NCBI GenBank assembly: GCA_050124655.1
Contig: JASFEV010000002.1
Coordinates: 1-51,791, forward strand
DNA length: 51,791 nt
DNA from: Desulfobacterales bacterium
GTDB taxonomy: Bacteria; Desulfobacterota; Desulfobacteria; Desulfobacterales; JAHEIW01
Direction: 5' to 3'
In this document: in pieces, positions 1,306-45,038 of the stretch
How positions within the stretch are numbered: the first letter of the stretch is position 1
How the letters are laid out: every line of letters begins with the position of its first letter
Translations under genes and position numbers: made by a program
The notes under the pieces: generated by a model
What the model saw: only the letters and a program-made list of their open reading frames with translations
Told to the model about the DNA's origin: nothing
The model's database searches: none

Positions 1306-1599
1306 GGAATTTTCTTCAAAATAATAGTGCCGTTTATATTATTTTCGGCGCCATGGAGGATAAATGATCGCGGTTATTCTGAATAGTAGATAACCGGCAA
1401 ACCTCATCTTCATACCACTTTTCGGGTCTTTTTTTAATCCTAAATTTAGCTTGAGCGTTTTTAACAAACACGTTATATACTTATCATATTTTATATTATA
1501 TACTATATATGGTGTTTTTTCCGCTTTTAATCAATATATTCCAAAATACGGAATCGTTCTCTGAAGGCTTAATGATATTAGAGGTATAATAATCAGAAT

Positions 1600-2214: not shown

Positions 2215-2226
2215 ACCATTATTAAA

Positions 2227-2757: not shown

Positions 2758-3021
2758 ATTTAAAAATAGGATCCGCTTTAACTTTTAAACATCAGAGTGC
2801 CAATAAATGCTAATTTGTTTGTTGAAAAACGAACCGTTATCAACAATTATTTAATTCTGCTGATATTGACCCGTTTATGAGCCTTAAATTATAACGTTTT
2901 TCATCAATTATGTTTAAAATATTTTTTCAATATTTTAAGCTGTTAAAACGTTCTTAGCATAATTAACATTCTATTATTATTTTATCTTTTTATTTTAAGA
3001 TATATAATTAAGGAAACTGTT

Positions 3022-6593
<3,572 letters not shown>

Positions 6594-6766
6594 AAATTAT
6601 CTCAAAACTGCACTTCTGTCTATAAAATCCATATACTGGGCAATGGAAAAAACAGTGTTAATAGCAAAACCCAAAATCCTGAACCTTTGAACCCGCTAAC
6701 CAACCCCAAGACAATTTGACTAACGGTAATGTAGCAAAATATAACATTGTCAATAGAAGGAAGGAT

Positions 6767-7558
6767 ATGAATATCCACACCATTCACGCCCGGGACTTGC
6801 CGGATCTATGGTTTCAGGCGGTTCATGATATACTGGATCATGGCAAGCGTTTTGTCATCGACCGTGGATCTTATGCGGGGCAAACCCGTCTGGAATACGA
6901 TTATTTTACGGGTCATGTGAAATACCCCGGAACACAACCGTTGATCCCGGACATTCCACCGGCCTGCGGCATTCCCAACCCGGTGGAACACGATTATATT
7001 TACGGGGGCCCAGGTTATGACAGGGCCTATATTGAGTATTTGATGTCGGCCCGCAAGGAACCCGGCGAGTCTTATACCTATGGTGAACGATTGACACGGG
7101 TGCCGCTGTCCGGCGATAAACTCCTCTGGTGGCAAACATCGAATAGCGAAATTATCGACAAACGCGAAACTGACGGGAAAATTGTTTTTGAGGAAAATGG
7201 CCGGTTATATCTAAACCAGATTGAATGGGTGATTGATACTTATCGCAAGTTCGGCGAGCGCAACAATCAACTGGTCCTTCAAGTGGCCCACCCGTCCGAT
7301 CTGACCTTGCTGGATCCGCCTTGCCTGCGGTCCATTGACACCCGTATTCAGAATAACAGCCTTAGCTTTTTTGTTTATTTTCGCTCATGGGACCTATGGA
7401 ATGGTTTTCCGGCCAACTTGGCCGCCATTCAAAATCTAAAAGAGTACATGGCCGCCGAAATCGGCGTCGAGGACGGCCAAATAGTTGTTGAAAGCAAAGG
7501 GCTGCACCTCTACGGCTATGCGGAAGATCTGGCAAACCTGCGCTGTTTGCGAACCTAA
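6767..7558 (+). CDS. Thymidylate synthase (ThyA) family protein, divergent archaeal-like type
   Basis: ATG at 6767 is preceded by AGGAAGGA; the track start at 6716 is less likely. DPPCLRSIDTRIQNNSLSFFVYFRSWDLWNGFPANLAAIQNLKEYMAAEIG and GLHLYGY correspond to the ThyA catalytic PC(H) Cys, the YxRSxD and PxN(I/L)A motifs, and the terminal HxY. Confidence 0.7.
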   Translation: MNIHTIHARDLPDLWFQAVHDILDHGKRFVIDRGSYAGQTRLEYDYFTGHVKYPGTQPLIPDIPPACGIPNPVEHDYIYGGPGYDRAYIEYLMSARKEPGESYTYGERLTRVPLSGDKLLWWQTSNSEIIDKRETDGKIVFEENGRLYLNQIEWVIDTYRKFGERNNQLVLQVAHPSDLTLLDPPCLRSIDTRIQNNSLSFFVYFRSWDLWNGFPANLAAIQNLKEYMAAEIGVEDGQIVVESKGLHLYGYAEDLANLRCLRT

Positions 7559-16847: not shown

Positions 16848-16890
16848 CTGTCAAATGCTGTCAAATGCTGTCAAATGCTGTAAACATTTG
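16848..16890. repeat. Tandem 10-mer array CTGTCAAATG x3 plus a degenerate fourth unit
   Basis: CTGTCAAATGCTGTCAAATGCTGTCAAATGCTGTAAACATTTG. The last part forms the inverted pair CAAATG...CATTTG. It lies about 180 bp upstream of the HTH gene start. Confidence 0.9.
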
Positions 16891-17880
16891 ATAATAAATC
16901 ATTTTTTTTATTGAAATTCAGACCTTCGTCTGTTAAGGTGGCTGTGTCCATGCTGAAATGGCTGTTTTAGCGCCTCCCATATCATTGTTTTACAATTCGG
17001 AAGTGCGGCATAATTGGTCTTCGCTTTCAGCTTCGGCCCAACACGGTGTTTGTAGAAAAAAGTGATTGAATATCGGAACGTTTTTTTAACAACCACTAAA
17101 AGCGACGAGCACTTATCATCGCATTATCTTGATAAGGCGTTTAAAGCAGCATCAAACAGCATGCAGTCCTCAGGGGGGATACACTTTACCGGATAGAGGA
17201 AGGTTTATTAAAGGAAGCCGACGCCTAATAAACAAGTTCTTTGCCAATTCTGCTTTTGTCCCTGGATCGGGTTAAGTTATTCCCCTTTGCCCCTTTACAT
17301 CTTTTCTGCCTCGTGCCCCTTTTGCTCCATACTGCCCGGAAAAAGGGCTAACAACCGATAACGAATCTGTTTCCGGACGACGCGTTTTTTCGAAGGAATG
17401 GTGAAGGCTTTGTTTCTGCTCAGTAACATTGCGGTTGTTTTTGGCGATCATCTGAACATCGCTACAAAAACAAAACGGCATTCTTATGGAAGGCGCCATT
17501 TGTTTGCGCTGGTTGACCAGCCATATCCTCACTGGTTAACCAGTCCTTATATAATACATGACTAGTCATTTTTTACTACATTTGTCTCTTCTTCTTCATT
17601 ATGCAGGCCGTTGAGACAATTTCAAATGTTAGGCGTACGCGTGCGGATCATCGGGGGACCTATCCGGGCGCTACCCATGGACGGATCAGTCTTGGCGCTT
17701 CAAAAGCACCTTTATCAACCGGGACCGTCGCCTTGTTTTTTGGGTAGGTGCATCTGCCACCAGTAAATCCAGCTACGGCTTGTACACCCCAGTGCTTTCT
17801 GAATGAAAGCGGGGCAGATTAAAAAAGGGGTGTTGCTGGGGTGTACTTGCCGTAATTAAAAAGGATTACGCGAAAAAAGA

Positions 17881-24228: not shown

Positions 24229-27200
24229 TTACTCATCGCGGATCAACAGTTTAATTTCATCAGAATTGGCTTTCAGCTCTGGTGCATACATGGCGTAGGC
24301 TCTGGTGGGCAATGCGCTGAATTTTCCCGGGATCTCCGCCCGCAGGCGATAGCTGACACTGTGTTTGCCGCGTGCCAGGCGACGCACAAAGAAAGCGACC
24401 TTCTGATCCCGAAATTCAACATAGGCCCCCATGTCATTGCCGGTGTAGCCACTGCGCACCTCAATCGGCTCAAAGCCGGCAGCCTTCATGTCCTCAAAGA
24501 CCAGATATTCATAATCGTTTTTGCTATCGATGATCAACTCAACTTCTACCAGCTCACCGCTGTTTACAGTCGCCTGGTTTTGAAGTGGCTGGCGCTCATA
24601 TTTTTCCACCCGGCGGTCGACCACCTGCCCACGCGAACCGGCATCTTTCATTTTCGTGTCGATTTCTGTTATGCGGAATAAACGCCGCTGGACCTTGATC
24701 TCCAAACCTTCTTTGGTGATAAAATCTTCCAGTGAAAAATAATCCAGATAGGCGTTAAAATAAATCCGACCCCGACCGGATTTTTTAAGCGTCACCGAAT
24801 GGGCGCCGCCCGCAATCTGCTTGCCCTCCAGCACCCATTTATGGTCGAAGGTAAACAGGTTTTGGGCATTCATCCGAATGGTTTTCACCTTTTGGTCATT
24901 AAAAAAGACGTCCAGGGTGAGATCCGGTGCGGCTTCACCACTGGCTGCCAGATAATCGGCAAAGGCTTCCACGATCACCGCCGTATCCCGGGTGCTGTTC
25001 CAGTAGGTGGCATGCTTGCGATTGTTGAGCAGATATTTGATCAGACCGGGCGCTTTTTCACTGGCCGGATCAGTGCGCGTCAATAACTTAAGGTAATAGG
25101 CGTGTGCTTCGTACTCGGAGCCGTACCAGTACCACCAATAATCGTTGTTGGGCAGATTCAGGTGGGCGGTCTGGTTTTCATCATCGACCACCAGAAATTG
25201 TTCAATATTTTGAATGATCATGGCCAGTTTTTCATTGTCCTCAACGTTGACCAGTGCCAGGCCGAACATCGCCTTGGCATAAACCGCTAGCCGGTTGCGA
25301 TCACGGTACAAATAGGCGCGCATCTTTTCGTTTTCCAACCCTTCATCGGTCAGTACCATATACACAAAGGCATCCAGATTGTCGGCCTGGCCTTTACCCT
25401 TCTTTTGGGTGCGGTCCCAGAGCATCAGGCGGTCAATTTCTTTGGCCTGATATTCTCTGAGCCACTGTACACCCCTGGCGAGCACGTCGCCGGGAATGGT
25501 GACGCCATTTTCGCGGGCAATCTGCAGCCCATGGATAACCAGAGCGGTGGTGTGTGGATAGGACTGCTCGCCATAGCCACTAAACCAGCCCCAGCCGCCG
25601 TCGGACAGCTGCATGGCAACCAGCCGCCGGACGCCGGCAGCCACCATGGATGCCACTTCGTCTTCGTCAAACACCGGGTTGTGGTCATAGCGTCGCCACT
25701 GGGCCGCACGTCGGGCGTCATCACCGATTTCCTGGGCGTTTAAATGGGTGCGTTTGTTTTGTACGTCAGCCAGATCGATACCCATGCGTTTTAAGGTTTG
25801 CTGGGTGATCACAGTGGGCAAAAATCGGTTTAAGGTCTGTTCGGTGCAGCCATATGGATAGCTGACCAGGTACGGCAGGGCATCCACCATGGCGCCGGCC
25901 AATGTCGGTGAATAGCGCAGCTCCAGGCGGGATTGGTCCACCCGCCGATCAGCGGGCACCTGAAACTGGATCTGGGCTCGGGTCTGGTCGGTGTGCATGA
26001 CACCGCTTTTGGGCACCTGTTTGACCATGCCGTGCACGTAAACCGGAAAGCGCATTTGCACAGCGTCGGACTCCTCATCGGTCAGCGCCTGTATGCGCAC
26101 CACAGCCTCGCCTTCTTTGATGACGCTAACGCGCCAGTCCACCCGGGTTTCACCGTTGGCGTCAACGGAGACCGATCGGGTTTGTTGTTGGCCTTTAACC
26201 AGGACCAGGCTGCCGCCCTCCAGTTCCAGTGAGACTTTAGCGACCTTGCTGTCCTTTAAATAATTATGAACGTTGGCCGACAGCACCACCTCATCGGTTT
26301 CCACAAAAAATCGAGGGGCCTGCAGGCGCACAATCAAATCCTTGCGCGTCACCAGTTCAGCTTGTCCCTGGCCGACTTTGGTGCCGTGCCCCATGGCCCA
26401 GATTTTCGCCTGCCATCCGGTCAGGTTTTCAGGCATTGTAAAGCGGACTTCCGCCATTCCCCGGGCGTCGGTGGTAATGTTGCCTGACCAGAAGGCGGTA
26501 TCGGCAAATTGGGTGCGCACCGTGGGTTGCTCAAGATCCCCGGCAGCCGGTGCTTCTTTGTCGGCCAACCGGCCGGGTTCGTCTGCTTTTCGCTCAAGCA
26601 TGGCGTCGGCCTCACCGGCCGCGGACGGCGCAGGCGCCCCCATTGCGCCGCTCTGGGCAGCGACCTTTGAGCGGGCCTTCTTATGCCCAGCCCGCGATTC
26701 TTTTGCGGCCGGCTCGGCCATGATAAGATTGCCAAAGACCCCGATAGGTTTCATGGAGGGTTCATTTTTTTTGAGCAGATTGGCGAACCACCGCGCCAGA
26801 CTGGACTCCTGGTAAGATCGATGGTGCCGCCGCCATTTCCAGAAGAATGAGCGAATTTCCGGCACATTGGAGCCACCGGAGATATATTCCACGGCGCGGT
26901 CATAAACGCTGATGACGGCCGTGCCCTGAAAGGGCTCACCATCATAATCGGTTAACTGAACATTGAGCGTGGCCGTTTGGCCGGGCCGATAGTCTTTTTG
27001 GGCAGGTACAACGGTTACATTGAGCACCCGTTTTTCAGGCGGCACTGCGATTTCACGGACCTCCGTGTGCACTTTGCCGCCGTAGACCGTGAAAGCTTCC
27101 ACAAAGAAGTTGGGCATGTCGTTTTTTGAAATGCGAATCGTCTGCTGGACGCTTTTGCCGGCCGGGGTAATGACCTTGGGCGCCAAATAGATGCCGTTGA

Positions 27201-30200
27201 CCGGGCGCACAAACAATACCACGGTGGCCCCCGGGCGATCGGTGTTGATTTGCAGCTGTAACCTGTCTCCGGGCGCATATTCGGCTTTATCGGCGATCAG
27301 TTCGATCTTGGCAAAGCGGTAACCGGTACCGTCATCTCCCTCGCCGCGCACGGTAAAGATATAGCCGCCTTCAATGGAATGGCCTTTGGCATCGCTAACG
27401 GTATAGGACAACCGGTATTGGCCGGAACGGGACGCCTGAATCTGCAAAGCGGCATTGCCCTGGTCGTCCGTGTTCAGGGCCCAGCGGGCCACTTCGGTCT
27501 CCCGGGGCTGGTTGTCTTGATAGGTAATGCGCAGCAGTTTGAGCCGGCCCTGGCCGGCAACCGGATCATTGTCGAGGGTTTGGGCTTTAAAACGGGCCAG
27601 GATGGTGTCGCCGACGCGGTAATGGCCGCGATCCAGCCAGGTATATACCTTGAAGGGTTTGCGGGCCACCAGTACTTGACCTTGACCGATAATGGTCCGC
27701 CGGGACTGATCCCGCACCTCGGCTTTGATGGTATAGCGGTGGTCGCTGTCGCCGTGAATCAATTTGGCCAGTGTGGTATCGATGGGGATCTTAACGCTGC
27801 CGTCGGGGCCGATGTCAACTTCACCGTCGGCTACGATTTCCGGCGGTTGTTGTGGCCATTGTGGCCACCAGCGCCGGATGGGTCTAAGGCAGCCCCAGTC
27901 TTGCCAGCCCGGGTACCAGGCATAATCATAGACATACCACCAATAACCCGGTCCATAAAGCCAGTCCCAGTAAAATTGGGGATACCAGCGGCTGTCGTGT
28001 TCGCTGCGCAGTATCTTGTATTTGACACGGGCTTCAGTGACCGGGGAGCCGAAGTAATAGGCGGCTTTAATCGTAGCGGTGATCTTTTCGCCCAGCATGA
28101 CCGGCTCGGTGGGGGCTTCCACGCCGACCTCAAATTCGGGTTTTTTGTATTCTTCCACTCGAAAGGTCTGGCCGCCATATACGCTGCTGCGGTTATGGGA
28201 GATGCGATATACACCCAAGGGCGCCTCTGCCGGGATTTGAAATTCGCCCTCAATACCGCCATAGGCATCGGCCGTCAGGCGTTGAGAATACATTTGCTCG
28301 TTTTTGGGATTGTGAATGCGAAAATTAAACTGCTGGCCGGCAAAGGCAGACGTGTCGTCTTTATCATAGCGGGTGTGCCGCACCCAGGCCTTGAATTTAA
28401 CCGTCTGGGCCGGCCGATACACCGGCCGGTCGGTCATGATCAGGGTTTTGGTCTGGCTGTATTCGCTGTCATCATAATTCGGATACCAGACATTGGAAAA
28501 ACCTAAAAAAGCCAGACGTCCTTCCCGAGCGGATGCGGTCGCCAGCCAGGACATATTTGAAGGCATTTGGGCCGGCGCTACGATCACCAGGCCGTTTGGG
28601 TCGGTTTTTGTGTTTAATTCCCGGTGAACGATGCGATAGCGATTGGTGTCTTTGATAGGGCGGGTGCGGTAGCCGAAAAATTCAAGATCGACACCGGGCA
28701 AGGCCTGGCCGCTGACCGCATCGGCGACATAGTAGAGCATTTGCTGTTTGAGCGGCTTTTTAACGATGACCGTGTCGGCCACCCAGATAATGATGCGGGC
28801 GATGTTGCCGTCTTGCATGCGGGCAGTGACGAAATACGCCCCAGCGGCTTTGAGGGCATCGGGAAATTGAACGCTTACGTGGCGGTCCCAGTGTCGCTCG
28901 TCAGGGTCCAGATTCAGCTGCCAATTGGCCACTTGCTGGCCGACGTACCGGCTCTGGTTTTGATTGACAATGCGCCAGCCGATATTGTTGAGGTTGATGC
29001 GATGCCAGTCCAACCGCCGGTTTTCAGAGCGGATATAGTCCTTTACATCGTCAAGCAGCCGCTTGACCCGGATACGCCGGGCGCTAAACATCACCTTGCG
29101 GCCATTGCGATAGCGATACTCCACCTGGGGCGTTGTATCGGCCGGCTGAATCCCGGCGGGTTCAAACGCGCCCCAGTTTTTGGTGATTTGATCCATATGC
29201 TGCTGGGCGACGGAGCGATTATACGGTTTATACAGCTGCCAATAATGGAGGGCACGATCGTATTGCCGCCGGTTTTCGTAAATCTGCGCCAGTGAGCGGG
29301 CGGCATTTCCGGCGTGACTGCTGTTAGGGGTTTCAAGGATTTTTTTAAAAACTTCGATGAAACTAAATTCAGCGGGTAGATCAAAACGCCGGACCCCCAC
29401 CGCCAGGCGGGCGATGGTTTCCCGATCGGTTAAGGTATGCACCGCATAGACCCCGCTGTCATCTTTTTGGTCCGTTTCTTTATCCATGGGGCGCCCGCGG
29501 CCGAAGAGCATACCGTATTCCGCCAGCGTTTGAACGCCGAATTTCTGATGTAAAAAGGTGGCCCAGGTGTAATCGACGCCGGCCTCCAGCGTCGGATCAA
29601 GTGCTACGGCCCTGGCCAGCAGCCAGCGCCAGCGCTCACCGTCGGAGACCGCAGTCGTATAGTCTTCCGGAATTTGATGATATACCGGCCGGCCCTGCGC
29701 ATCCACCGGGGCATAACGGGTGCGGCTGCCATAGGGATGGCCGTATCCAGGCTCAACATCCGGCAAGCGGGTAAGATCGGTCAGATATTGCAGGCGCCAG
29801 GCCTGGGCGGTTCCGCGATGTTGCTGCAGGATTCCGGCAAACGCCATGTAAAACTGGGCCACTTCGGCTTTTTGCGGATCCGATTCGGCCGGCGCCATAG
29901 CCTGTTGCAGCAGTTGCAACGCGCGCACGCGATCGCGGGCCAGAGCGTTGACATATTTTCCGCCCCCCCGATGATGGCCGCGTTGAAATTCACCGGCGAT
30001 CATATAGCCCCAATGGGTGTTTTGGCTGTAACTGCGGGCCGCAGCCAGCAGCAATCGCCAGTTGGCTGCATGTTGTTCAATGACCGCCTCACGGAAATCA
30101 TCCAGCTGATGCAACTGGTTAAGCTGGCGCAGGCACTGCCAGGCCTGGGTAAAATCCGAGGGAACCATTTTCGGATCCGTTCTGGGATTCAGACTCAGTT

Positions 30201-30357
30201 GGCGATATAGATCAAAGGCATCCTGCCAGTTGCCATCGGTGTAGGCCTTTTGGGCCTGTTTGCGAATTTGATGATGGGCTGCGTCTTCAGCCCCGGCAGG
30301 TGCGGCTATGAATAACACCGTCGTTATGAAAAGAAGGATAATTTTTGTTTTCATCAT
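24229..30357 (-). CDS. Bacterial alpha-2-macroglobulin family protein (thioester-containing), 2042 aa
   Basis: Signal peptide MMKTKIILLFITTVLFIAAPAGA. Thioester motif GCTEQ, with CTEQ codons at 25837-25848 (about residue 1504), in the context YLVSYPYGCTEQTLNRF. Ala/Glu/Lys-rich low-complexity segment (AAKESRAGHKKARSKVAAQSGAMGAPAPSAAGEADAMLERKADEPGRLADKEAPAAGD) in a bait-region-like position. GGAGA ribosome-binding site before the ATG at 30357. Confidence 0.9.
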   Translation of the reverse strand: MMKTKIILLFITTVLFIAAPAGAEDAAHHQIRKQAQKAYTDGNWQDAFDLYRQLSLNPRTDPKMVPSDFTQAWQCLRQLNQLHQLDDFREAVIEQHAANWRLLLAAARSYSQNTHWGYMIAGEFQRGHHRGGGKYVNALARDRVRALQLLQQAMAPAESDPQKAEVAQFYMAFAGILQQHRGTAQAWRLQYLTDLTRLPDVEPGYGHPYGSRTRYAPVDAQGRPVYHQIPEDYTTAVSDGERWRWLLARAVALDPTLEAGVDYTWATFLHQKFGVQTLAEYGMLFGRGRPMDKETDQKDDSGVYAVHTLTDRETIARLAVGVRRFDLPAEFSFIEVFKKILETPNSSHAGNAARSLAQIYENRRQYDRALHYWQLYKPYNRSVAQQHMDQITKNWGAFEPAGIQPADTTPQVEYRYRNGRKVMFSARRIRVKRLLDDVKDYIRSENRRLDWHRINLNNIGWRIVNQNQSRYVGQQVANWQLNLDPDERHWDRHVSVQFPDALKAAGAYFVTARMQDGNIARIIIWVADTVIVKKPLKQQMLYYVADAVSGQALPGVDLEFFGYRTRPIKDTNRYRIVHRELNTKTDPNGLVIVAPAQMPSNMSWLATASAREGRLAFLGFSNVWYPNYDDSEYSQTKTLIMTDRPVYRPAQTVKFKAWVRHTRYDKDDTSAFAGQQFNFRIHNPKNEQMYSQRLTADAYGGIEGEFQIPAEAPLGVYRISHNRSSVYGGQTFRVEEYKKPEFEVGVEAPTEPVMLGEKITATIKAAYYFGSPVTEARVKYKILRSEHDSRWYPQFYWDWLYGPGYWWYVYDYAWYPGWQDWGCLRPIRRWWPQWPQQPPEIVADGEVDIGPDGSVKIPIDTTLAKLIHGDSDHRYTIKAEVRDQSRRTIIGQGQVLVARKPFKVYTWLDRGHYRVGDTILARFKAQTLDNDPVAGQGRLKLLRITYQDNQPRETEVARWALNTDDQGNAALQIQASRSGQYRLSYTVSDAKGHSIEGGYIFTVRGEGDDGTGYRFAKIELIADKAEYAPGDRLQLQINTDRPGATVVLFVRPVNGIYLAPKVITPAGKSVQQTIRISKNDMPNFFVEAFTVYGGKVHTEVREIAVPPEKRVLNVTVVPAQKDYRPGQTATLNVQLTDYDGEPFQGTAVISVYDRAVEYISGGSNVPEIRSFFWKWRRHHRSYQESSLARWFANLLKKNEPSMKPIGVFGNLIMAEPAAKESRAGHKKARSKVAAQSGAMGAPAPSAAGEADAMLERKADEPGRLADKEAPAAGDLEQPTVRTQFADTAFWSGNITTDARGMAEVRFTMPENLTGWQAKIWAMGHGTKVGQGQAELVTRKDLIVRLQAPRFFVETDEVVLSANVHNYLKDSKVAKVSLELEGGSLVLVKGQQQTRSVSVDANGETRVDWRVSVIKEGEAVVRIQALTDEESDAVQMRFPVYVHGMVKQVPKSGVMHTDQTRAQIQFQVPADRRVDQSRLELRYSPTLAGAMVDALPYLVSYPYGCTEQTLNRFLPTVITQQTLKRMGIDLADVQNKRTHLNAQEIGDDARRAAQWRRYDHNPVFDEDEVASMVAAGVRRLVAMQLSDGGWGWFSGYGEQSYPHTTALVIHGLQIARENGVTIPGDVLARGVQWLREYQAKEIDRLMLWDRTQKKGKGQADNLDAFVYMVLTDEGLENEKMRAYLYRDRNRLAVYAKAMFGLALVNVEDNEKLAMIIQNIEQFLVVDDENQTAHLNLPNNDYWWYWYGSEYEAHAYYLKLLTRTDPASEKAPGLIKYLLNNRKHATYWNSTRDTAVIVEAFADYLAASGEAAPDLTLDVFFNDQKVKTIRMNAQNLFTFDHKWVLEGKQIAGGAHSVTLKKSGRGRIYFNAYLDYFSLEDFITKEGLEIKVQRRLFRITEIDTKMKDAGSRGQVVDRRVEKYERQPLQNQATVNSGELVEVELIIDSKNDYEYLVFEDMKAAGFEPIEVRSGYTGNDMGAYVEFRDQKVAFFVRRLARGKHSVSYRLRAEIPGKFSALPTRAYAMYAPELKANSDEIKLLIRDE

Positions 30358-30414
30358 TGGTGTCTCCGGCTGCAGCGGTGATCGATTAGAGTCGATTCTT
30401 ACTCGGATGGTAAA

Positions 30415-30443
30415 ATTCTACAAACACTAAACCTGACAGTCAA
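30415..30443 (-). promoter_or_regulatory. Sigma-70-type promoter candidate for the alpha-2-macroglobulin gene
   Basis: The reverse strand reads TTGACT (30443-30438), a 17-nt spacer, then TAGAAT (30420-15), about 55 nt upstream of the start codon. Confidence 0.55.
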
Positions 30444-30486
30444 TATGGGTGGGGTACCTTTTACACAACTTTTACCTAAACTGATC

Positions 30487-30975
30487 GTTTCAAAATAAAA
30501 AAAGGAATACTTTTCTAAGGAATTCTATCGTTTTTAATATTTTTATTTTGAAACCCTTAGGGCTTGTCGATCTCACTGCATCTACTGTGTTAGATGCCGT
30601 TCCGCATAGTACACTATAGCGGAACGACATCTGCCTTGTAGCTGCAGCAATCTCGACAAGCGATCAGCTTAGTTCCCAAAGTTGAGTGTTTTAAATTTTA
30701 AAAAATCTAATTAAAGTTAAAGGAATTCTGTCTTTTTAATTTTTAAAATTTAAAACCCCCAAGGGGCTTATCGATCTCACTGCATCTACTGTGTTAGATG
30801 CCGTCCCGCATAGTACACTATAGCGGAACGGCATCTGCCTTGTAGCTGCAGCAACCTCGATAAGCGCTCAATTTAAGTATTACCTAATCCGAGCGTTTCA
30901 AAATAAAAATATGGGAATATTTTCGTTAAGGAATTCTATCGATTTTAAAATTATTTATCGTTAACAACGAAAAAT
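30487..30975. repeat. Tandem array of about 200-bp structured units (two full, one degenerate)
   Basis: Each full unit starts with an AT-rich hairpin. In unit 1 it pairs 30487-30501 with 30540-30554. In unit 2 it pairs 30688-30704 with 30740-30756. The hairpin loop carries AAGGAATTCT(A/G)TC. A short CCC..GGG hairpin follows. The unit ends in a 98-nt near-perfect palindrome at 30563-30660 (unit 1) and 30767-30864 (unit 2). The third unit (30893-30975) keeps the loop motif in an 8-bp stem. Confidence 0.9.
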
Positions 30976-30996
30976 TGTTTTCAAACTTAATAATAT

Positions 30997-31143
30997 AAAA
31001 ACCGGTCTTAAAAATAGTAGATTACGCTCAAGGGCAAGGCGAAAATCGATTCAAAAGTGGAGCATACACATCAGTATTCGAGCATTTTGAATCGGTTTTC
31101 AACGCAGCCCTTGGGCGTTAGATGCATTTTTAAGACCGGTTTT
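30997..31143. repeat. About 147-nt imperfect palindrome overlapping the stop codon of the upstream gene
   Basis: There are three nested pairings: AAAACCGGTCTTAAAAAT with ATTTTTAAGACCGGTTTT, ACGCTCAAGGGC with GCCCTTGGGCGT, and AAAATCGATTCAAAA with TTTTGAATCGGTTTT. Confidence 0.85.
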
Positions 31144-31633
31144 AGATGTTGTGTTTGAGGAAGTTGATGATCTCCTGCAGTTTAACACCGATAATCGGCC
31201 AGAGCTGCCAGGTTAAATAGCCGAGTGACAGGATGAGCAGGATAAGGACCAGCATCAGGGTTAACCGGCGGGCCCCATTTTTTTTAGGTTTCACATGCAT
31301 GGGCGGCTTGGCTTCTTCAGCGGCGGATAGTGATTCAAAAGAAAATTTCGGCGGCTTTTCAACCGGGGTAAACTTTTCAACATCGGGTTTTACCGCTTCA
31401 TGGGCTATGAACACGGCTGTTGCCCCACATTTTTGAAATGCCTGGACAAACACGGCCGCTTTTTCCGCCTCAATATCATTGCTGAGTGTATAAGGCGTAT
31501 TTCTAACCTTTTCGGCCAACGCATCAGCGGAAGCCGTTTTTGCAAATCTTAAAAGCAGTAGAACGACTTTCTTTGCAGCGTCTTCAGTCGGCACTGTTTT
31601 TAGAACCAGTTTTCCGCGCGGGATGTTGTCCAT
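31142..31633 (-). CDS. Hypothetical protein with C-terminal membrane anchor
   Basis: The ORF extends to a TTG at 31678; ATG at 31633 (MDNIPRGKLVLK...) is more plausible. Soluble N-terminal domain, Pro/Lys linker, then a C-terminal TM segment (RRLTLMLVLILLILSLGYLTWQLW). Confidence 0.55.
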   Translation of the reverse strand: MDNIPRGKLVLKTVPTEDAAKKVVLLLLRFAKTASADALAEKVRNTPYTLSNDIEAEKAAVFVQAFQKCGATAVFIAHEAVKPDVEKFTPVEKPPKFSFESLSAAEEAKPPMHVKPKKNGARRLTLMLVLILLILSLGYLTWQLWPIIGVKLQEIINFLKHNI

Positions 31634-33688: not shown

Positions 33689-34051
33689 GAACCAACGTAA
33701 AAAGCTGGGCCGTCTTTGTCCAACAACCCAGCTTTTCAGCCTCCCCAGGCAACCCGGCCATCCACCTCCGGCGGACCCGTTGGCTTTCCGTCCCCTGATT
33801 ACTCAGAGTTTGGCATTTCCGTGAGAAACTTTTTTACAATTTGTTCAAAGAGAAGGCCGGAATCATTACGTTTTCGGCCTCATGGCGATCCAATATGGAT
33901 ATCGGTTCATTGCAAAAAGAACTTTAGCTAATTTTTACTTGATTTTAAGGGCTTAGGGCTAAAAATAAATAAACGCGGTTATCTGGGAAACGCCAGTTGG
34001 ATACATCTGATACAGCCCTTATAATTGAAATATTGTAATATGGAATTAGGA

Positions 34052-35464
34052 TTACATTCTGACCGTAATATAGTACCCTTGATCCCCCCTCTGCAGCAGG
34101 ATCACCACGGATGGTTTCTGTCGATATTTGACGACGGCTTTTTTAAAATCTTTTTTGTTTGCAATCGTCATGTCGTCAATCTGGCGGATAAGGTCGCCGG
34201 GACGCGCACCAATACGGTCCAGATAGCTGCCACGCGCAATTTCGGAAATGACGACGCCCTCACGGGCCAGGATACGATAAGCGTTGCGATTTTTTGAGGT
34301 GATATCATCGACCCGAACACCGATGATGCGAAAGGCTAAATCTTCGGCGCGCTCCATGGGAAAAACGCGGGATTTGATCGATATGGTTTTGACTTTGTTG
34401 TCGCGCCAGATGCGAGTTTTGAGTGAATCTCCGGCGGCATATGTTTTCTTAATCGACCAGTATTCCTGGGGTGAATCTATTTTTTTTGAGCCGATCGCTA
34501 AAATGATATCGCCTTCTTGCAGACCGGCTTTGGAAGCCGGACTGTCGGTCTCCACGGCTTTGACGACGACACCCTTTTTGTCGGGAACATTCAGGTAGCC
34601 GGCCAACTTCTGATCCAGCTTTTGGACATTGATGCCGATCCAGGCCTGGACCACCTCGCCGAATTGTATTAAATCGGCGATAATTTTTTTGGCTTTGTTG
34701 ATGGGAATCGCAAAACCAATGCCTTGGGCTTTGGCATAAATGGCGGTGTTAATGCCAATCAGATCGCCGTTGATGTTTAGCAATGGTCCACCGCTGTTTC
34801 CGGGGTTGATGGAGGCGTCTATCTGAATAAAGTCATGAAAAATCATGTCTTCACTGCGAACGCTGCGATTGAGGGCACTGATGACGCCCGTGGTCACTGT
34901 ATGTGAAAAGCCAAAAGGATTGCCGATGGCAATAACGGTTTCACCGATCATCAAATCATCGCTGCTGCCCATATCAATGGACGGTAGCTGGTTTTGAGCG
35001 TCGATTTGCAACACCGCTAGGTCCGAATCCGGATCGGCGCCAACGATCTTAGCATCAAAATCGCGTTCATCCTCCAACACGACCTTTATTTTACTGGCCT
35101 TTTCGATTACGTGGGCGTTGGTGAGGATTAAACCTCTTTTTCCGTCGATGATCACGCCGGAGCCCAGGCTGGCGCGTTCCTGACGGCTTTCGAAGCGCGG
35201 GTCGAAGAAATCTTTGAAAAAATCTTCAAAAAACGGATCCAAACCAAATCCGGAAAAGGGGTTAGCACGCTTGCGGACGGCATAGGAGGAGCTTATGTTA
35301 ACGACAGCCGGGCTGACTTTGCGGACGGCTTGTACAATCGGGCTTTCGCGCTCACTTTGCAGGCTCCTGCCAGGTTGGGGTAAAAGCAAAATCGAAAACA
35401 TGAAAAGCGAAGCAAAAAGGATGGAAACGAGTTTATTTTCTGTTTGCATGCGGTGACGTTGCAT
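34052..35464 (-). CDS. Periplasmic serine endoprotease DegP/HtrA (trypsin-like domain plus two PDZ)
   Basis: Catalytic motifs TNAHV, DLAVL and GNSGGPLLN, with two PDZ-like regions. ATG at 35464 is preceded by GGAAGG; the track start at 35545 is less likely. Confidence 0.9.
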   Translation of the reverse strand: MQRHRMQTENKLVSILFASLFMFSILLLPQPGRSLQSERESPIVQAVRKVSPAVVNISSSYAVRKRANPFSGFGLDPFFEDFFKDFFDPRFESRQERASLGSGVIIDGKRGLILTNAHVIEKASKIKVVLEDERDFDAKIVGADPDSDLAVLQIDAQNQLPSIDMGSSDDLMIGETVIAIGNPFGFSHTVTTGVISALNRSVRSEDMIFHDFIQIDASINPGNSGGPLLNINGDLIGINTAIYAKAQGIGFAIPINKAKKIIADLIQFGEVVQAWIGINVQKLDQKLAGYLNVPDKKGVVVKAVETDSPASKAGLQEGDIILAIGSKKIDSPQEYWSIKKTYAAGDSLKTRIWRDNKVKTISIKSRVFPMERAEDLAFRIIGVRVDDITSKNRNAYRILAREGVVISEIARGSYLDRIGARPGDLIRQIDDMTIANKKDFKKAVVKYRQKPSVVILLQRGDQGYYITVRM

Positions 35465-35604
35465 AGATGACCTTCCGACCAAGCCGCTTGTCTTGATTTG
35501 AGATCGGCACTGTTTTCGGCTGCTAAAATATAAACATCGTGTCATGAAAATAAAGACGACTTCTTCTATTATTTAGGCGAATCTGGTAATATGAGCCCAT
35601 AAAT

Positions 35605-39943: not shown

Positions 39944-40078
39944 TCATTTAATCTTGACATGGTTTCAAGCTTGTGATTTATATCATAAATTTCGGGCTAC
40001 GCCCACTGAGGTCTTATAAAACAAGTATTAACACCGCACGAATATTAAATATAAGTAATAATATAAGGAAGTTATAAA

Positions 40079-40213
40079 ATGAAGCGTACTTTTCAACCCA
40101 GCCGGATAAGACGGGCCAGAAACCATGGATTCCGCAAACGGATGTCCACTAAAGCGGGTCGCAGGATAATCAATCGACGTCGGGCCAAAGGTCGAGCAAG
40201 ACTTGCCGCTTAA
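40079..40213 (+). CDS. rpmH: 50S ribosomal protein L34
   Basis: Not in the ORF track because it is below the length cut-off. ATG at 40079 gives [44 protein letters not shown], 44 aa with TAA at 40211-40213. It sits in the classical position before rnpA. Confidence 0.95.
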
Positions 40214-40248
40214 AACGACCTGGCCATCAAATCGGGTGATAGATCACG

Positions 40249-40599
40249 ATGCGCTTTTCCTTTAAAAAGGAAGATCGAATCCTTAAGCGGTCGGAATTCC
40301 TCGAACTCACCCGATCCGGACGCAAGGTACAAAACGACTGCTTTATTGCATTATTTAAACCGGGCCGACTCGATCATTCCAGACTGGGTATTACGGTTAC
40401 GCGAAAGGTCGCCAAAGCTGCATCTCGAAACAAAATCAAACGGTTGGTACGCGAATATTTTCGATTAAACAGGCAGCAGCTAAATCAAAACTGGGATATC
40501 AACATTGTAGCCAAAAAAAAGGCCGCAGACCTTTCAGCTGAGAAGGTATATTCATCCCTTCAAGATTTGTTTGAACAGATTGTGAATAATGTTGATTAA
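40249..40599 (+). CDS. rnpA: Ribonuclease P protein component
   Basis: 116 aa, basic, with [25 protein letters not shown] (RNR-type motif). Synteny rpmH-rnpA-yidD-yidC. Confidence 0.9.
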
Positions 40600-40858
40600 A
40601 AAGATCATATCGATATTGATGCTCACATCAATCAGGGCTTACCAATATACACTGTCACCCATATTGGGCCCCTGTTGTCGTTTTTATCCAACCTGTTCGA
40701 ATTATGCCCATCAAGCAATCCAACAGCACGGTCCGTTTTATGGCCTCATTCTGGCATCCAAACGCCTACTACGATGTCATCCCTTTCATCCTGGTGGTGT
40801 TGATCCGGTTCCCCAATCTGCGCGTAACAAAACGATGCGAACGCCTTTTGCTGGATAA
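40589..40858 (+). CDS. yidD: Membrane protein insertion efficiency factor YidD
   Basis: [43 protein letters not shown]. Confidence 0.9.
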
Positions 40859-40988
40859 AGGGTAAATCGTTTAAGGCGCAGTTCCTGCTCCTCTTGCGAA
40901 GACCCCGGACGATAAACCTGTTTGATTGGCGCCTTATGCGGCAATGGAAAAGGACGGTAATTTCACAACCTGCTCGTAGGAGAAAACT

Positions 40989-42674
40989 ATGGAACAATCG
41001 CGACTGTTAATAGCCATCGTCCTCTGTCTGGTCATATTTCTGGCATGGCAGTTTTTTTTCGCACCCCCCCCGCCCCCTCAACAGAAGCCGCAGGAGCCGA
41101 GCCAAAAAGCTGAGGCACCTGTGGGGGAAAAGCAGCAAGCGGTTCAAGAAAAGGATCAGGCCAAGCCGTATTCGCCCGAAAGCGATCAAAAAGGCGTCAG
41201 CACACCGTCGGACGCTACAGCTGCCGCACCTTCTACGGTCAGGATTATTACCGTGCAGACCCCGCTCTATGAAGCTCAAATTTCTGAGAACGAGGCTGCG
41301 ATTTTCAGTTTTCTGCTCAAAAATTATCGCGAACGGGTTGCAGCGGATTCACCTTTAAAGCAGGTGCTGCCAAACGATCAAGCCTATGGCCTCGGCCATC
41401 TGGGGTTTAGCGGTAAAAGCGTTCCCGGGCTGGATAAAGCCGCATTCAGCACCGATCTGATTGGTGACGCGCTCCAAGTCAATACGTCCAGCCACAATCT
41501 GACCTTTACCTGGCGTTCGCCTGAAGGTGTCGTGATCGAAAAAACATATCGTTTTAATTCGGATTCCTACGTTATCGGCCTTAATGTAACCATTAAAAAT
41601 GGATCTGGACGTATTATCCAGGACAGGCTTTTTGTAAGCATAAACGGAAAGACGCCCAGTGACAAACGAATGTACGCATTTCAAGGGCCTAGCGCTCTGA
41701 TCAATAATGAGCTCAAACAAATTAAGATCAAAAATCTGGAAGATCAGAATGCTTTTGATGGCCAAATCAAATGGCTTGCGATTCAAAGCCGCTATTTTAT
41801 GTCCGGGCTAATTCCTGACCAGCTTGAAGAGGCCCGAATGCATCTGGCCTTACCATCCGATAAAGTTGTGATGGCGCAATATCAGCAGCCGGAAAAATCC
41901 ATACCGCCCGGCAACCAGTACACTTACCCATATCGGTTGTACATCGGTCCCAAAAAAATAAGCTATCTGAAAAATGTCGGTAATGATTTGGAGAAGCTTG
42001 TCGATTTTGGCTGGTTTGATTTCATTGCCAGACCCTGCTTGTGGCTCCTGAACTTATTTTACAGCGTTATCCCCAATTACGGTATCGCCATTATTATTTT
42101 AACCATTCTGGTTAAAGTACTGCTGTGGCCCCTGGGACAAAAAAGCTACAAATCCATGAGCGAAATGAAAAAGCTGCAGCCTTTGATGAAGGAGATCCGT
42201 GAAAAATACAAAGACGACAAACAGCGCATGAACCAGGAGGTCATGGGGCTGTATAAAACATACAAAATCAATCCACTGGGCGGGTGTTTGCCGATGGTTG
42301 TTCAGCTACCGGTATTTTTTGCGCTTTACCGCATGCTTTACCAAGCCATTGAACTGCGGCATGCGCCCTTTTTTCTCTGGATTGATGACCTGTCGGCACC
42401 GGACCGGTTATTCCGTTTTGGCTTTTCAATACCATTTATGGAGCCTCCTTACGGTATACCGGTCCTGACCGTTATTATGGGCGCCAGCATGCTACTCCAG
42501 CAAAAGATGTCGCCACCCATGGGAGACGCCACACAGGCCAAAATGATGATGTTCATGCCCATTATCTTTACGGTCATTTTCATTAATTTTTCATCCGGCC
42601 TCGTTCTATACTGGCTGGTGAACAACATTCTATCGATTGCGCAGCAATATTATACTCAGAAGAAATACGCCTGA
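40989..42674 (+). CDS. yidC: Membrane protein insertase YidC
   Basis: 561 aa. N-terminal TM segment, Pro/Gln-rich linker, periplasmic domain, and a conserved C-terminal core (NYGIAIIILTILVKVLLWPL, GGCLPMVVQLPVFFALY, SGLVLYWLVNNILSIAQQ). Confidence 0.93.
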   Translation: MEQSRLLIAIVLCLVIFLAWQFFFAPPPPPQQKPQEPSQKAEAPVGEKQQAVQEKDQAKPYSPESDQKGVSTPSDATAAAPSTVRIITVQTPLYEAQISENEAAIFSFLLKNYRERVAADSPLKQVLPNDQAYGLGHLGFSGKSVPGLDKAAFSTDLIGDALQVNTSSHNLTFTWRSPEGVVIEKTYRFNSDSYVIGLNVTIKNGSGRIIQDRLFVSINGKTPSDKRMYAFQGPSALINNELKQIKIKNLEDQNAFDGQIKWLAIQSRYFMSGLIPDQLEEARMHLALPSDKVVMAQYQQPEKSIPPGNQYTYPYRLYIGPKKISYLKNVGNDLEKLVDFGWFDFIARPCLWLLNLFYSVIPNYGIAIIILTILVKVLLWPLGQKSYKSMSEMKKLQPLMKEIREKYKDDKQRMNQEVMGLYKTYKINPLGGCLPMVVQLPVFFALYRMLYQAIELRHAPFFLWIDDLSAPDRLFRFGFSIPFMEPPYGIPVLTVIMGASMLLQQKMSPPMGDATQAKMMMFMPIIFTVIFINFSSGLVLYWLVNNILSIAQQYYTQKKYA

Positions 42675-42690
42675 TGACGGAGGTTTACAT

Positions 42691-43494
42691 ATGTCAGAGA
42701 AGTTGGAATTCACGGCCAAAAATGTTGACAAAGCGGTCGAACGGGCCAGTGCAGAACTCAACCTGCCGAAAAATGAGCTAAAATACGAAGTGCTTTCTTA
42801 CGGTTCTAGCGGCATATTCGGTTTATCCCGAACCAAAAAGGCCAAAATTCGGGTCCGGCTGCCGGAAGATACGCTGGCATCAGCGCCAAAGGCTGAATCC
42901 GTTGACGATGTAAGCACTTACACCGGCGACATCAGCGCGTCTGATGATTCAGCTGCCATGGGTGCGGTCAAAGCGGAAAACGATTTGGCCGCCAACCCGG
43001 GCGATCAGGAACTGTATTCGTTTCCTGACGATCCCGCCGAAATGGGACGGCTGGTTTTACAGCGTATCGTCGATTCCATTACGTCGGATGCTAAAATTTC
43101 GGTTGAAAAGGATGAAGAAAGGCTTTTTTTCAATGTCAATGGCGGCAACGCCGGGATTTTGATCGGCAAGCGCGGCCAAACCCTGGATGCCATTCAGACG
43201 ATCGTCAATAAAGTTGTTAACAAGTACAATCAAAACCGAACACGGGTTTTAGTGGATATCGAGGGTTATCTGGAAACCCGTAAAGAGAATTTGGAAAAAA
43301 TGGCCATGCGGTTGGCCGAAAAATCCAAAAAAATCGGCAAACCGATGACTCTCGGGCCCATGAATGCATATGACCGTAGAATTGTTCATCTTGCCTTGCA
43401 AGATTTTTCCGCTGTTCAAACCCGCAGCCGGGGAGAAGGCCCTCTCAGAAAACTGGTGATTTTTCCTAAAAAAAGGAATGCCGCGCGACGATAG
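42691..43494 (+). CDS. jag: Jag/KhpB RNA-binding protein (Jag_N, KH, R3H)
   Basis: ATG at 42691 is preceded by GGAGG. KH-like GILIGKRGQTLDAIQ and R3H-like MNAYDRRIVHLAL. Located between yidC and mnmE. Confidence 0.85.
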   Translation: MSEKLEFTAKNVDKAVERASAELNLPKNELKYEVLSYGSSGIFGLSRTKKAKIRVRLPEDTLASAPKAESVDDVSTYTGDISASDDSAAMGAVKAENDLAANPGDQELYSFPDDPAEMGRLVLQRIVDSITSDAKISVEKDEERLFFNVNGGNAGILIGKRGQTLDAIQTIVNKVVNKYNQNRTRVLVDIEGYLETRKENLEKMAMRLAEKSKKIGKPMTLGPMNAYDRRIVHLALQDFSAVQTRSRGEGPLRKLVIFPKKRNAARR

Positions 43495-43511
43495 CGATGG
43501 GTTAAAAATTA

Positions 43512-44945
43512 ATGGTCACAGATTCAGATACCATTGCCGCCATTGCCACACCCGGCGGTCGGGGTGGAATTGGCATTGTTAAAATATCCGGTTCTGATGC
43601 ATTTGGAATCGCACAGGCCATTTTCAGGCCGCTAAAAAACCGCCCGGATGCGATTGGTGCCAAAATCCGACAAGGCACCCATGTTCGACCCGTCGAATTT
43701 GAGACCCATCGCCTTTACTATGGGCATATTATTGATCCGGACGGCGGTCAAATTATAGACGAAGTCTTATTATCAGCCATGCGGGCGCCGCGCACTTACA
43801 CCCGCGAAGATGTCGTCGAAATTAACGCCCACGGCGGAGCCATGGTCTTGCATGCCATCCTGAAGTTGGTGATCACAAGGGGTGCTCGGCTGGCTGAACC
43901 GGGTGAGTTCACCCGCAGGGCTTTTCTCAACGGTCGCATCGATCTTACCCAGGCCGAAGCGGTTATTGATGTTATCAATGCCCGGACGCAAAAAAATTTA
44001 GCACTGGCGGCGGCCCAGTTGAGTGGAAAGTTAAAGGAGCAAATAGCGCTTGCCAGAAACCATTTGGTCGGGCTTCTGACCCATGTTGAAGCCGTCATCG
44101 ATTTTCCGGAAGAAGTTGAAGATCTTATCCACCTCCAAAATACCATCAATTCCATTCAAAAAGGGGTTTTGGTTCCGCTTAAAGGTCTGGTCCAAAATTA
44201 CATTGACGCCCATGTTTTCAGAGACGGTATTTCTGTGGCGGTGGTCGGACGTCCCAACGTAGGCAAATCCAGTCTTTTGAACCAACTGGTTAAAAAAGAT
44301 CGTGCGATTGTGACGGATATACCGGGAACCACCCGCGATATTATTGAAGAAACGCTCAATATCCAGGGCATACCGGTCATCGTCAGCGATACAGCTGGTG
44401 TGCAGCCAACTGATAATCCGATCGAAAAAATGGGAATTGAAAAGACCCTATCGCATGTTAACGGGTCGGATCTCGTTCTTTTTATGATTGAAGCCCATTG
44501 CGCGTTACATCCGGATGATCACCTTATTTATGAAAAGATCAACTCTAAGCGCATCATCATGGTCCTCAATAAAATTGATCTGGTTCAAAAAGACGAGACA
44601 ACACGCCTACCGGACACATGGCAATATGATGGCCGGGTGCCTGTTTCCGCCTTGTATGACCGTGGAATTGATCAGCTCAAAGACAAGATCATTTCACTGG
44701 CTGGCGGGAAAATCCCTCTTGATTCGGACGCCATGATCGTTCCCAACTTAAGGCATAAAATGCTGCTTGAAACCAGTCTCGTTGCTGCCGAAGCGGTAAT
44801 TGAATCGCTGCAAAATGGGACCTCCAGTGAGCTGGTGGCCATTCATTTACAAGAAGCCATCGATGCGCTGGGGGTTATCAGTGGCGATAACGTTAAGGTG
44901 GATGTGCTGGATCAGATTTTCAGCCGCTTTTGTGTGGGAAAGTAA
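43512..44945 (+). CDS. mnmE: tRNA uridine-5-carboxymethylaminomethyl modification GTPase MnmE
   Basis: 477 aa. N-terminal DTIAAIATPGGRGGIGIVKISG, G domain GRPNVGKSSLLN and DTAG, C-terminal FCVGK. Confidence 0.95.
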   Translation: MVTDSDTIAAIATPGGRGGIGIVKISGSDAFGIAQAIFRPLKNRPDAIGAKIRQGTHVRPVEFETHRLYYGHIIDPDGGQIIDEVLLSAMRAPRTYTREDVVEINAHGGAMVLHAILKLVITRGARLAEPGEFTRRAFLNGRIDLTQAEAVIDVINARTQKNLALAAAQLSGKLKEQIALARNHLVGLLTHVEAVIDFPEEVEDLIHLQNTINSIQKGVLVPLKGLVQNYIDAHVFRDGISVAVVGRPNVGKSSLLNQLVKKDRAIVTDIPGTTRDIIEETLNIQGIPVIVSDTAGVQPTDNPIEKMGIEKTLSHVNGSDLVLFMIEAHCALHPDDHLIYEKINSKRIIMVLNKIDLVQKDETTRLPDTWQYDGRVPVSALYDRGIDQLKDKIISLAGGKIPLDSDAMIVPNLRHKMLLETSLVAAEAVIESLQNGTSSELVAIHLQEAIDALGVISGDNVKVDVLDQIFSRFCVGK

Positions 44946-44949
44946 TTAA

Positions 44950-44965
44950 TGTTTCACGTGAAACA
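44950..44965. promoter_or_regulatory. Perfect 16-bp palindrome TGTTTCACGTGAAACA (copy 1 of 2)
   Basis: Read directly, 5 nt after the mnmE stop. The core GTTTCACGTGAAAC recurs at 49249-49262. Confidence 0.5.
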
Positions 44966-45038
44966 ATTCAAACTGGCTTTAAAACGCCCATTTTTTACTT
45001 GATGATTGTGTTGTGATTTACTTCAAAATGCTCAGATG

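Follow-up and report, generated by a model that had tools for sequence, protein, structure and literature searches.

What is the array of hairpin-forming repeats that lies in front of the alpha-2-macroglobulin gene of an uncultured Desulfobacterales bacterium, and does it serve that gene? We examined a stretch of 51,791 nt (GenBank assembly GCA_050124655.1, contig JASFEV010000002.1, positions 1 to 51,791), which we call the window. An earlier note, made from the letters of this window, had described structured ~200-bp units with compensatory substitutions upstream of the gene, and its implied reading was a folded RNA or cruciform that acts there. We found that the array very probably consists of tandem copies of an interspersed repeat that is non-coding, modular and forms hairpins, of the same general kind as REPINs, BIMEs and MITEs. 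The lineage in which the repeat occurs is one of uncultured Desulfobacterales, and the element has no dedicated role in regulating alpha-2-macroglobulin.

The alpha-2-macroglobulin gene (2042 aa) is on the minus strand of the window at 24229-30357, and upstream of it on the same strand is a gene for a 163-aa protein of unknown function (31142-31633). The spacer between the two genes is 784 nt long and holds the repeat array (30475-30975), which is made up of two complete ~200-nt units and an incomplete third. We set the orientation of the element as + in the window; of its two strands, the minus strand forms the better fold. One element (~205 nt) contains, in order, a left arm, an AT-rich hairpin, a GC mini-hairpin, a 98-nt palindrome and a right arm. 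The arms are 13 nt each and mutually complementary (left CCTAAATTGAGCG, right CGCTCAATTTAGG), and the loop of the AT-rich hairpin bears a conserved motif, AAGGAATTCTATCG.

To find out where else the element occurs, we searched for a 21-mer of the palindrome (GCATCTACTGTGTTAGATGCC), with one genome per species. We found this 21-mer in 52 DNA stretches in 15 metagenome-assembled genome (MAG) assemblies of Desulfobacterales or 'Deltaproteobacteria', and the richest assemblies were JAHEIW01 with 16 matches and CAZJHF01 with 13 (both MAGs are incomplete). The flanks of the matches have the same module order in nearly all cases. With a hidden Markov model of the family (~205-nt unit), we found 58 copies scoring more than 100 bits, and all 58 are intergenic; overlap with a long open reading frame (ORF) is seen only with two ORF calls that are probably spurious. 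Copies are mostly single, tandem arrays are also present at L042 (two copies 210 nt apart), L011 and L059 (L numbers denote loci), and inverted pairs lie within 1–2 kb of each other in L023 and L029. The earlier note had said that its reading would give way if the palindrome proved to be a high-copy repeat at unrelated loci with target-site duplications. The first half of this description largely fits what we found, as the palindrome and all other modules are multi-copy and lie at unrelated intergenic loci in the 15 assemblies; the second half does not, as no target-site duplications were seen.

At the locus itself, the number of units varies between closely related genomes. The exact 163-aa protein (ATG start) is encoded on 23 MAG contigs, and we compared the spacers in 10 loci; a contig look-up with the longest form of the ORF (TTG start, 178 aa) gave no match. 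The 0-unit allele has a spacer of 373 nt and was found in five loci that are fully spanned, and also in L010, where an incomplete spacer reads as 0-unit. The 1-unit allele (580 nt) was found in one of the 10 loci and the 2-unit allele (781–784 nt) in three, plus the window, so that no full unit (6/10 loci) is the commonest state. The alleles are otherwise near-identical and differ by exactly 0, 1 or 2 units. What is left in the 0-unit allele is the 'third unit', with a left arm, one half of an AT hairpin and the motif, fused to the left part of unit 1; this is the product that recombination between repeated left parts would give. In one conspecific MAG (L010, JASFNP010000010.1), the contig ends ~70 nt past the array position, in single-copy spacer; this end could be an assembly break from repeat copy-number variation in the sampled population.

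Between the array and the alpha-2-macroglobulin start there is a sigma-70-like site, TTGACT-17-TAGAAT (30443-30415, minus strand), that matches 10/12 consensus positions and, going by this consensus match only, is likely the promoter of the gene. The site is unchanged within the proximal 119 nt of the spacer, which are common to all alleles save for scattered single-base differences. Because the 0-unit alleles keep the same promoter-like site outside the array, the units are dispensable for the alpha-2-macroglobulin gene.

The features of the array, in order of position within each unit, are as follows.

30475-30673, + strand: unit 1, a full copy (nhmmer 30476-30672, model 2-204, 195.9 bits).
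30475-30487, + strand: left arm of unit 1, CCTAAACTGATCG (inverted repeat I11), which pairs with the right arm CGATCAGCTTAGT at 30661-30673.
30487-30554, + strand: AT hairpin of unit 1 (I7, 30487-30501 with 30540-30554, 15/15 complementary), with the motif at 30517-30529 in the loop.
30554-30562, + strand: GC mini-hairpin of unit 1, CCCTTAGGG, read from the sequence.
30563-30660, + strand: 98-nt imperfect palindrome of unit 1 (I3, I13).
30676-30877, + strand: unit 2, a full copy that starts 3 nt past unit 1 (nhmmer 30677-30875, model 2-203, 184.4 bits).
30688-30762, + strand: AT hairpin of unit 2 (I1, 30682-30704 with 30740-30762, 23 nt, 91% complementary), with the motif at 30720-30732.
30756-30766, + strand: GC mini-hairpin of unit 2, CCCCCAAGGGG, read from the sequence.
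30767-30864, + strand: 98-nt imperfect palindrome of unit 2 (I4, I12; 5 differences from unit 1).
30883-30975, + strand: third unit, or solo left part (nhmmer 30884-30952, model 2-73).

Units 1 and 2 form a direct repeat (D1) with 93% identity over 112 nt and a spacing of 204 nt. Tandem Repeats Finder, run on the window, did not report this 204-nt period because the AT-hairpin halves of units 1 and 2 are only ~69% alike. The mini-hairpins have the pattern CCC-loop-GGG with a stem of only 3–4 bp. The solo left part has a left arm (CCTAATCCGAGCG), then the 5' half of an AT hairpin with the motif, and then a local stem (TTTTCGTT/AACGAAAA); remnants like it also trail full copies in L026 and L011. 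When we searched the window for the motif with at most one mismatch, we found 5 sites, compared to 0.09 expected by chance.

Much of this anatomy had been read correctly from the letters. The AT hairpins of units 1 and 2 do pair as described; the motif AAGGAATTCT(A/G)TC, i.e. AAGGAATTCTRTC, is present without mismatch in all three units (at 30517, 30720 and 30928); and the two 98-nt palindromes differ at five positions (4, 39, 65, 89 and 95), with positions 4 and 95 forming the reported compensatory pair (a G-C versus A-T double change). The palindrome had been called near-perfect, which it is not: it is imperfect, with conserved internal loops, and only 54–56 of its 98 positions agree with its reverse complement when the two are aligned without gaps. 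The units of the earlier note were too small, since they are bounded by inverted 13-nt arms, and the third unit, taken there for a separate stem variant, is instead an incomplete left part of the element (30883-30952).

To ask whether pairing is maintained, we folded the spacer and aligned the copies. The 784-nt spacer folds far more stably than shuffled sequences on both strands (z = –14.7 and –16.2). For 35 copies, RNAalifold predicted a three-way junction of 65 pairs, of which 22 have changes on both sides, and 97.4% of cells pair. All five measures were above all 500 shuffles, and in slid controls 34–43% of cells pair. The covariation is strongest in the AT-hairpin stems and the outer arms. 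In the outer stem, which is formed by the arms, 6/8 pairs are double-changed and 95.2% of cells pair; the AT-hairpin stem covaries across the family (for example, TA 17 / AU 14 and AU 16 / UA 16), and in palindrome helices 2 and 3, 97.8% and 99.0% of cells are paired. The motif is ~90–100% conserved per position, within a loop that is otherwise variable. The claim that pairing is retained while the sequence changes is thus upheld across the family. The accompanying statement that simple duplication would not do this is sound for the comparison of unit 1 with unit 2, but mobile hairpin repeats such as REPINs are also known to acquire compensatory changes (PMC3116915).

The two strands of the element are not equivalent. 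We counted 131 G.U cells on the element minus strand compared to 14 on the plus strand, and 97.4% of cells are paired on the minus strand compared to 92.3% on the plus strand. Two wobble pairs in the palindrome are conserved on the minus strand (U.G in 31/35 copies and G.U in 34/35), and on the same strand the mini-hairpin loop is GAA, GCA or GTA in most listed copies. The 131:14 asymmetry indicates that one single-stranded form, RNA or single-stranded DNA (ssDNA), matters. The upstream ORF is co-oriented with the element in 29 cases and opposite in 21, and for the downstream ORF the counts are 29 opposite and 23 co-oriented; because copies are oriented at random to genes, mRNA made by read-through is unlikely to be the carrier, and we infer that an ssDNA intermediate or a self-contained transcript fits better.

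The element is built of parts that come and go. In copies L021, L039 and L053, the AT module is missing, and in L015 and L032 a different hairpin module lies in its place beside the 98-nt palindrome. This substitute module is also a third hairpin repeat in the window, at 16990-17100 (GCGGCATAA...GGTGTTTGTAGAAAA...TTTTTAACAACCACTAAA), where it is split by a 30-nt mini-element (TTGGTCTTCGCTTTCAGCTTCGGCCCAACA) that is itself nested in copies L013, L029, L036 and L054 of the main element. Other mini-hairpins are nested at fixed points inside the helices of several copies. The outer 7 nt of the arms change wholesale between copies while complementarity is kept; in L042, for example, the arms are CATCGGT/ACCGATG compared to the consensus CCTAAAT/ATTTAGG. 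This wholesale change speaks for a mechanism rather than for compensatory mutations acquired one by one, and candidates are palindrome-templated correction, a palindromic target, or guide-like pairing. Palindrome-templated correction can also yield compensatory change (PMC7202029, PMC8604942).

The same insertion site is occupied in different species at the greA 3' end, at the 3' end of a PilZ gene and in a cytochrome c3/miaA spacer. At the PilZ-gene 3' end, the AT module is present in one species and missing in another (L039), indicating that the element is modular. To compare the greA site more broadly, we used 80 metagenome loci encoding close GreA relatives. In several lineages the element directly follows the stop codon of greA, while others of similar divergence have no element there, and the site holds the full element, a 25-nt scar, or nothing. 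In L087 and L089, only CCTAAAATGA-GCGTT-TCAATTTAGG or a close variant is present, where near relatives hold the full element; this 25-nt short form is the left arm joined to the right arm at a TCAA microhomology. We considered whether such arm-to-arm hairpins might be an abundant independent family that serves as a target and rejected this, as there are only 4 short forms compared to ~50 full copies in 0.79 Mb; because they are rare, we read them as deletion scars. A greA tree (465 nt) has too low a resolution to separate one ancient gain with losses from repeated gains, and presence of the element on it is patchy. The greA-rpoZ spacer is hypervariable among close relatives (metagenome loci L065-L107), and downstream of greA in these loci short tandem repeats are found in the element's place: (GATTGGTT)n, GGA-rich (CTGGAATG)n and (GGTTCAG)n.

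Several observations weigh against a mobile, selfish repeat. We found no recurrent transposase-like ORF in the 52 loci (~0.4 Mb around copies), and the window itself encodes no transposase, its genes being dnaN, gyrB, yidC, mnmE and similar. There is no consistent target-site duplication in the flanks of ~45 full copies. Several insertions are retained across species, which is compatible with a host function too, and recombination between units is enough to account for the unit-number polymorphism at the window locus, which does not prove transposition. The placement of copies is also uneven: median distances from the left end are 1 nt to a stop codon and 24 nt to a divergent start, compared to 125 nt from the right end to the next gene (p = 1e-5). 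Such placement is not predicted for a purely selfish, randomly inserting element. In co-oriented cases the left arm is ≤10 nt from the stop codon in 23/29, and in cases with a divergent gene it is 2–24 nt from the start in 11/21, just outside the Shine-Dalgarno sequence.

A search for the enzyme, a vector or a known family gave the following. All-against-all clustering of ORFs from the 52 loci returned only housekeeping and signalling families, and the recurrent neighbours were rejected as a mobiliser, as the clusters that we checked or could recognise are response regulators, PilZ, GGDEF, Usp, enoyl-CoA hydratase, ABC ATPase and cytochrome c3. Between the inverted pairs of L023 and L029, where a transposase might lie, there are ordinary genes: a cysteine-rich 126-aa unannotated ORF in one and, by its sequence, a tRNA dimethylallyltransferase-like ORF in the other. 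In the fetched loci there is neither a parental insertion sequence with the same ends nor an integrase-like ORF that recurs near copies, and a viral contig scan and plasmid and phage collections have no match to the element. A second left arm or partial unit, 20–31 nt or more, follows many copies and is a partial tandem copy. Rfam gave no match to the element at gathering score (whole window), and at E ≤10 over 30300-31250 only chance miRNA and snoRNA matches that are far below threshold, in agreement with the earlier note, which had recognised no named RNA family.

If the array is a mobile hairpin repeat, the element would be copied in trans by an enzyme encoded elsewhere, and this enzyme would read the folded minus strand, most likely as ssDNA, as in HUH/RAYT-type systems. 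A RAYT/IS200-like or a DDE enzyme may be the one that acts. Arrays would gain and lose units when they duplicate locally and when the repeated left parts recombine unequally or by slippage, and internal deletion would yield a solo left part, or the 25-nt hairpin of joined arms. A more specific version, in which the folded minus strand is read by the mover and the copy-specific outer arm bases pair with the target like a guide, is a long shot. We keep it in view because the arms vary with complementarity kept, the left end has a 1-nt median distance to stop codons, wobble pairs are distributed 131:14, and no transposase or target-site duplication was found. If it were true, guide-like arms would place the left end exactly at a stop codon or immediately before a ribosome-binding site, and the element would be small, non-coding and able to insert in a programmable, boundary-seeking way, or else it would represent a family of structured RNAs that does so.

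A possible though doubtful alternative is that the repeat, whatever its origin, has been domesticated and now serves the host as punctuation at gene boundaries, much as others have suggested for REP/BIME, ERIC and Correia elements. The long palindrome and GC mini-hairpin followed by TTTCAAATTT, read on the minus strand, would terminate or stabilise the upstream transcript, and the AT module with its conserved GATAGAATTCC would be a protein-binding or promoter-like site that faces the gene at the left end. The closeness of the left arm to stop codons and divergent starts, with the right end at a median of 125 nt, speaks for such a role, as do same-site insertions retained across species, the ~90–100% conserved motif in a variable loop, wobble pairs confined to one strand, and one terminator-like consensus match on the minus strand (30769-30753). 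However, orientation is near-random, so that the 'functional' strand is not the transcribed one in about half of cases; the units are missing at this locus in most conspecific genomes with no other change; and the mini-hairpin has only 3–4 bp. A sigma-70 promoter in the AT module was also considered and rejected: from the best –35-like hexamer (TTTCAA) to the –10-like TAGAAT is 19–20 nt, too long for sigma-70, and a consensus scan found none inside the units. The TAGAAT hexamer is flanked by an invariant G and C, a conservation pattern that resembles a protein site. The strand asymmetry of wobble pairs (131:14 G.U cells and two conserved pairs) and the strong covariation would speak for a reading in which each unit is a small structured RNA gene, transcribed alone from the minus strand as a three-way-junction RNA, in a tandem gene array. 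Orientation independent of flanking genes is as expected for autonomous genes, and in arrays a motif-bearing solo left part lies upstream of the palindrome in the minus-strand sense. We nevertheless regard this as unlikely: there is no promoter common to all copies, many copies are without an upstream motif-bearing part, the AT module is entirely missing in some (L021, L039, L053), nested mini-hairpins and frequent internal deletions are typical of junk or mobile DNA rather than of a conserved RNA gene, this locus can do without the units, and Rfam has no relative.

The reading implied by the earlier note, in which a cis-regulatory RNA or cruciform specific to this locus would control alpha-2-macroglobulin, has in its favour the position of the array between the upstream gene and the start codon and a very stable predicted fold. 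It is very improbable given that 6/10 loci with the identical 163-aa neighbour lack full units while the proximal 119 nt are common to all, and that the same element adjoins dozens of unrelated genes; with units polymorphic here and dispersed elsewhere, a local structured element tied to this gene is not what the data describe. The palindromes might also be attC sites of very small cassettes in an integron-type array, as they are imperfect, of attC-like length and fold in a strand-specific manner, and the left arm begins at stop codons, where attC sites begin too. This is hardly conceivable and was ruled out on core sites and context: there are no AAC/GTT core triplets (the consensus is CCTAAAT...ATTTAGG, with positions 6–7 variable), copies are mostly single, dispersed and in both orientations within 1–2 kb (L023, L029), and no integrase-like ORF recurs nearby, the neighbour genes being ordinary.

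The window holds other repeats and features. At 30998-31143, there is a separate 146-nt palindrome with perfect 18-nt outer arms and a 16-nt inner stem. This palindrome overlaps the 163-aa gene at its stop codon and, on the minus strand, leads into a T-rich run, which makes it look like a terminator. It is present in all alleles, and because relatives are found elsewhere (L026 4856-4950, 92% over 95 nt, and a partial one in L059), it is a second repeat family. At 16848-16881, a perfect tandem repeat, CTGTCAAATG x 3.4, lies in an AT-rich intergenic region. The regions 1-7000 and 40000-45000 place dnaN-gyrB and rnpA-yidD-yidC-jag-mnmE in one window; a low-GC stretch (36–40%) at 1–4 kb may include the replication origin, and no dnaA ORF was recognised next to dnaN. 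Many neighbours of copies elsewhere are cyclic di-GMP (c-di-GMP) genes (PilZ, GGDEF), which is perhaps coincidence. On the minus strand at 33745-33824 there is a full-length c-di-GMP-I riboswitch aptamer (RF01051, 57.6 bits), with an HtrA-like protease gene (34052-35545) on one side and, on the other, a 47-aa ORF that was called in related MAGs.

With a dispersed hairpin repeat in this spacer, a false lead is removed: the array is not an alpha-2-macroglobulin riboregulator. The hosts of the family are uncultured marine and sediment Desulfobacterales. Such repeats can pass for riboswitches or small RNAs in covariation screens, they break MAG assemblies, and their length polymorphisms are serviceable for strain typing. 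The wobble pairs, which are almost all on one strand, and the left end, which is almost exactly at gene boundaries, are of interest to research on REPIN/RAYT-type systems.

How does the element compare to known systems? In REPINs, compensatory hairpin changes are common, and these elements have long hairpins and inverted conserved halves, are extragenic and clustered, are predicted to fold in ssDNA or mRNA, and persist and are vertically inherited in a lineage (PMC3116915). Our element is like REPINs in having a long imperfect ~100-nt palindrome made from two inverted conserved halves, in its numbers (REPINs have tens of extragenic copies per genome, in clusters; here there are 16 and 13 exact-seed matches in two incomplete MAGs), in compensatory hairpin changes (22/65 pairs), in predicted folding as a single strand, in its persistence within a lineage and in GTAG in both arms (GTAGCTGCGG and GTAGATGCGG, read from the sequence). 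In contrast to REPINs, it is twice as long; it has additional modules, which are an AT hairpin with a loop motif, a GC mini-hairpin, and outer arms by which a three-way junction is closed; its left end abuts gene boundaries; and it apparently has no sequence likeness to known REPs. The RAYT gene is usually single-copy and flanked by its repeats, and because no RAYT was seen in the 52 loci or the window, membership in the REPIN class is not established.

The BIMEs of enterobacteria, which are built from REP (palindromic unit) sequences, are mosaics of palindromic modules and linkers that are extragenic and variable in tandem number, some with an IHF site in the linker. The element likewise has palindromic modules and linkers in fixed order, variable tandem number and an extragenic location, and its protein-site-like linker motif recalls the IHF site of some BIMEs. 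It differs in being enclosed as a whole by complementary arms, in its host phylum (Desulfobacterota), and in sequences and module sizes that are apparently unrelated. Correia/NEMIS in Neisseria, ERIC in enterobacteria, and BOX and RUP in pneumococcus are MITE-like elements of 100–200 nt with terminal inverted repeats. The element shares with them its non-coding nature, terminal inverted arms, an intergenic location often at gene ends and presence/absence polymorphism, and it has internal insertions at fixed positions as in ERIC and is modular as in BOX. In contrast, copies are not flanked by the short target-site duplication of fixed length that marks DDE-type MITEs, and the fetched loci have no parental insertion sequence with the same ends, for which reason a classical MITE is not established, and the outer 7 nt of the arms vary by copy and yet are complementary.

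The attC sites of integrons begin at stop codons and have the core sites R'' (RYYYAAC) and R' (GTTRRRY). As in attC sites, structure is kept above sequence in the element, one strand folds, and copies are placed right after stop codons; unlike them, it has no core sites, is not in cassette arrays and has no integrase seen nearby. The element fits a previously undescribed family within the known category of structured interspersed repeats.

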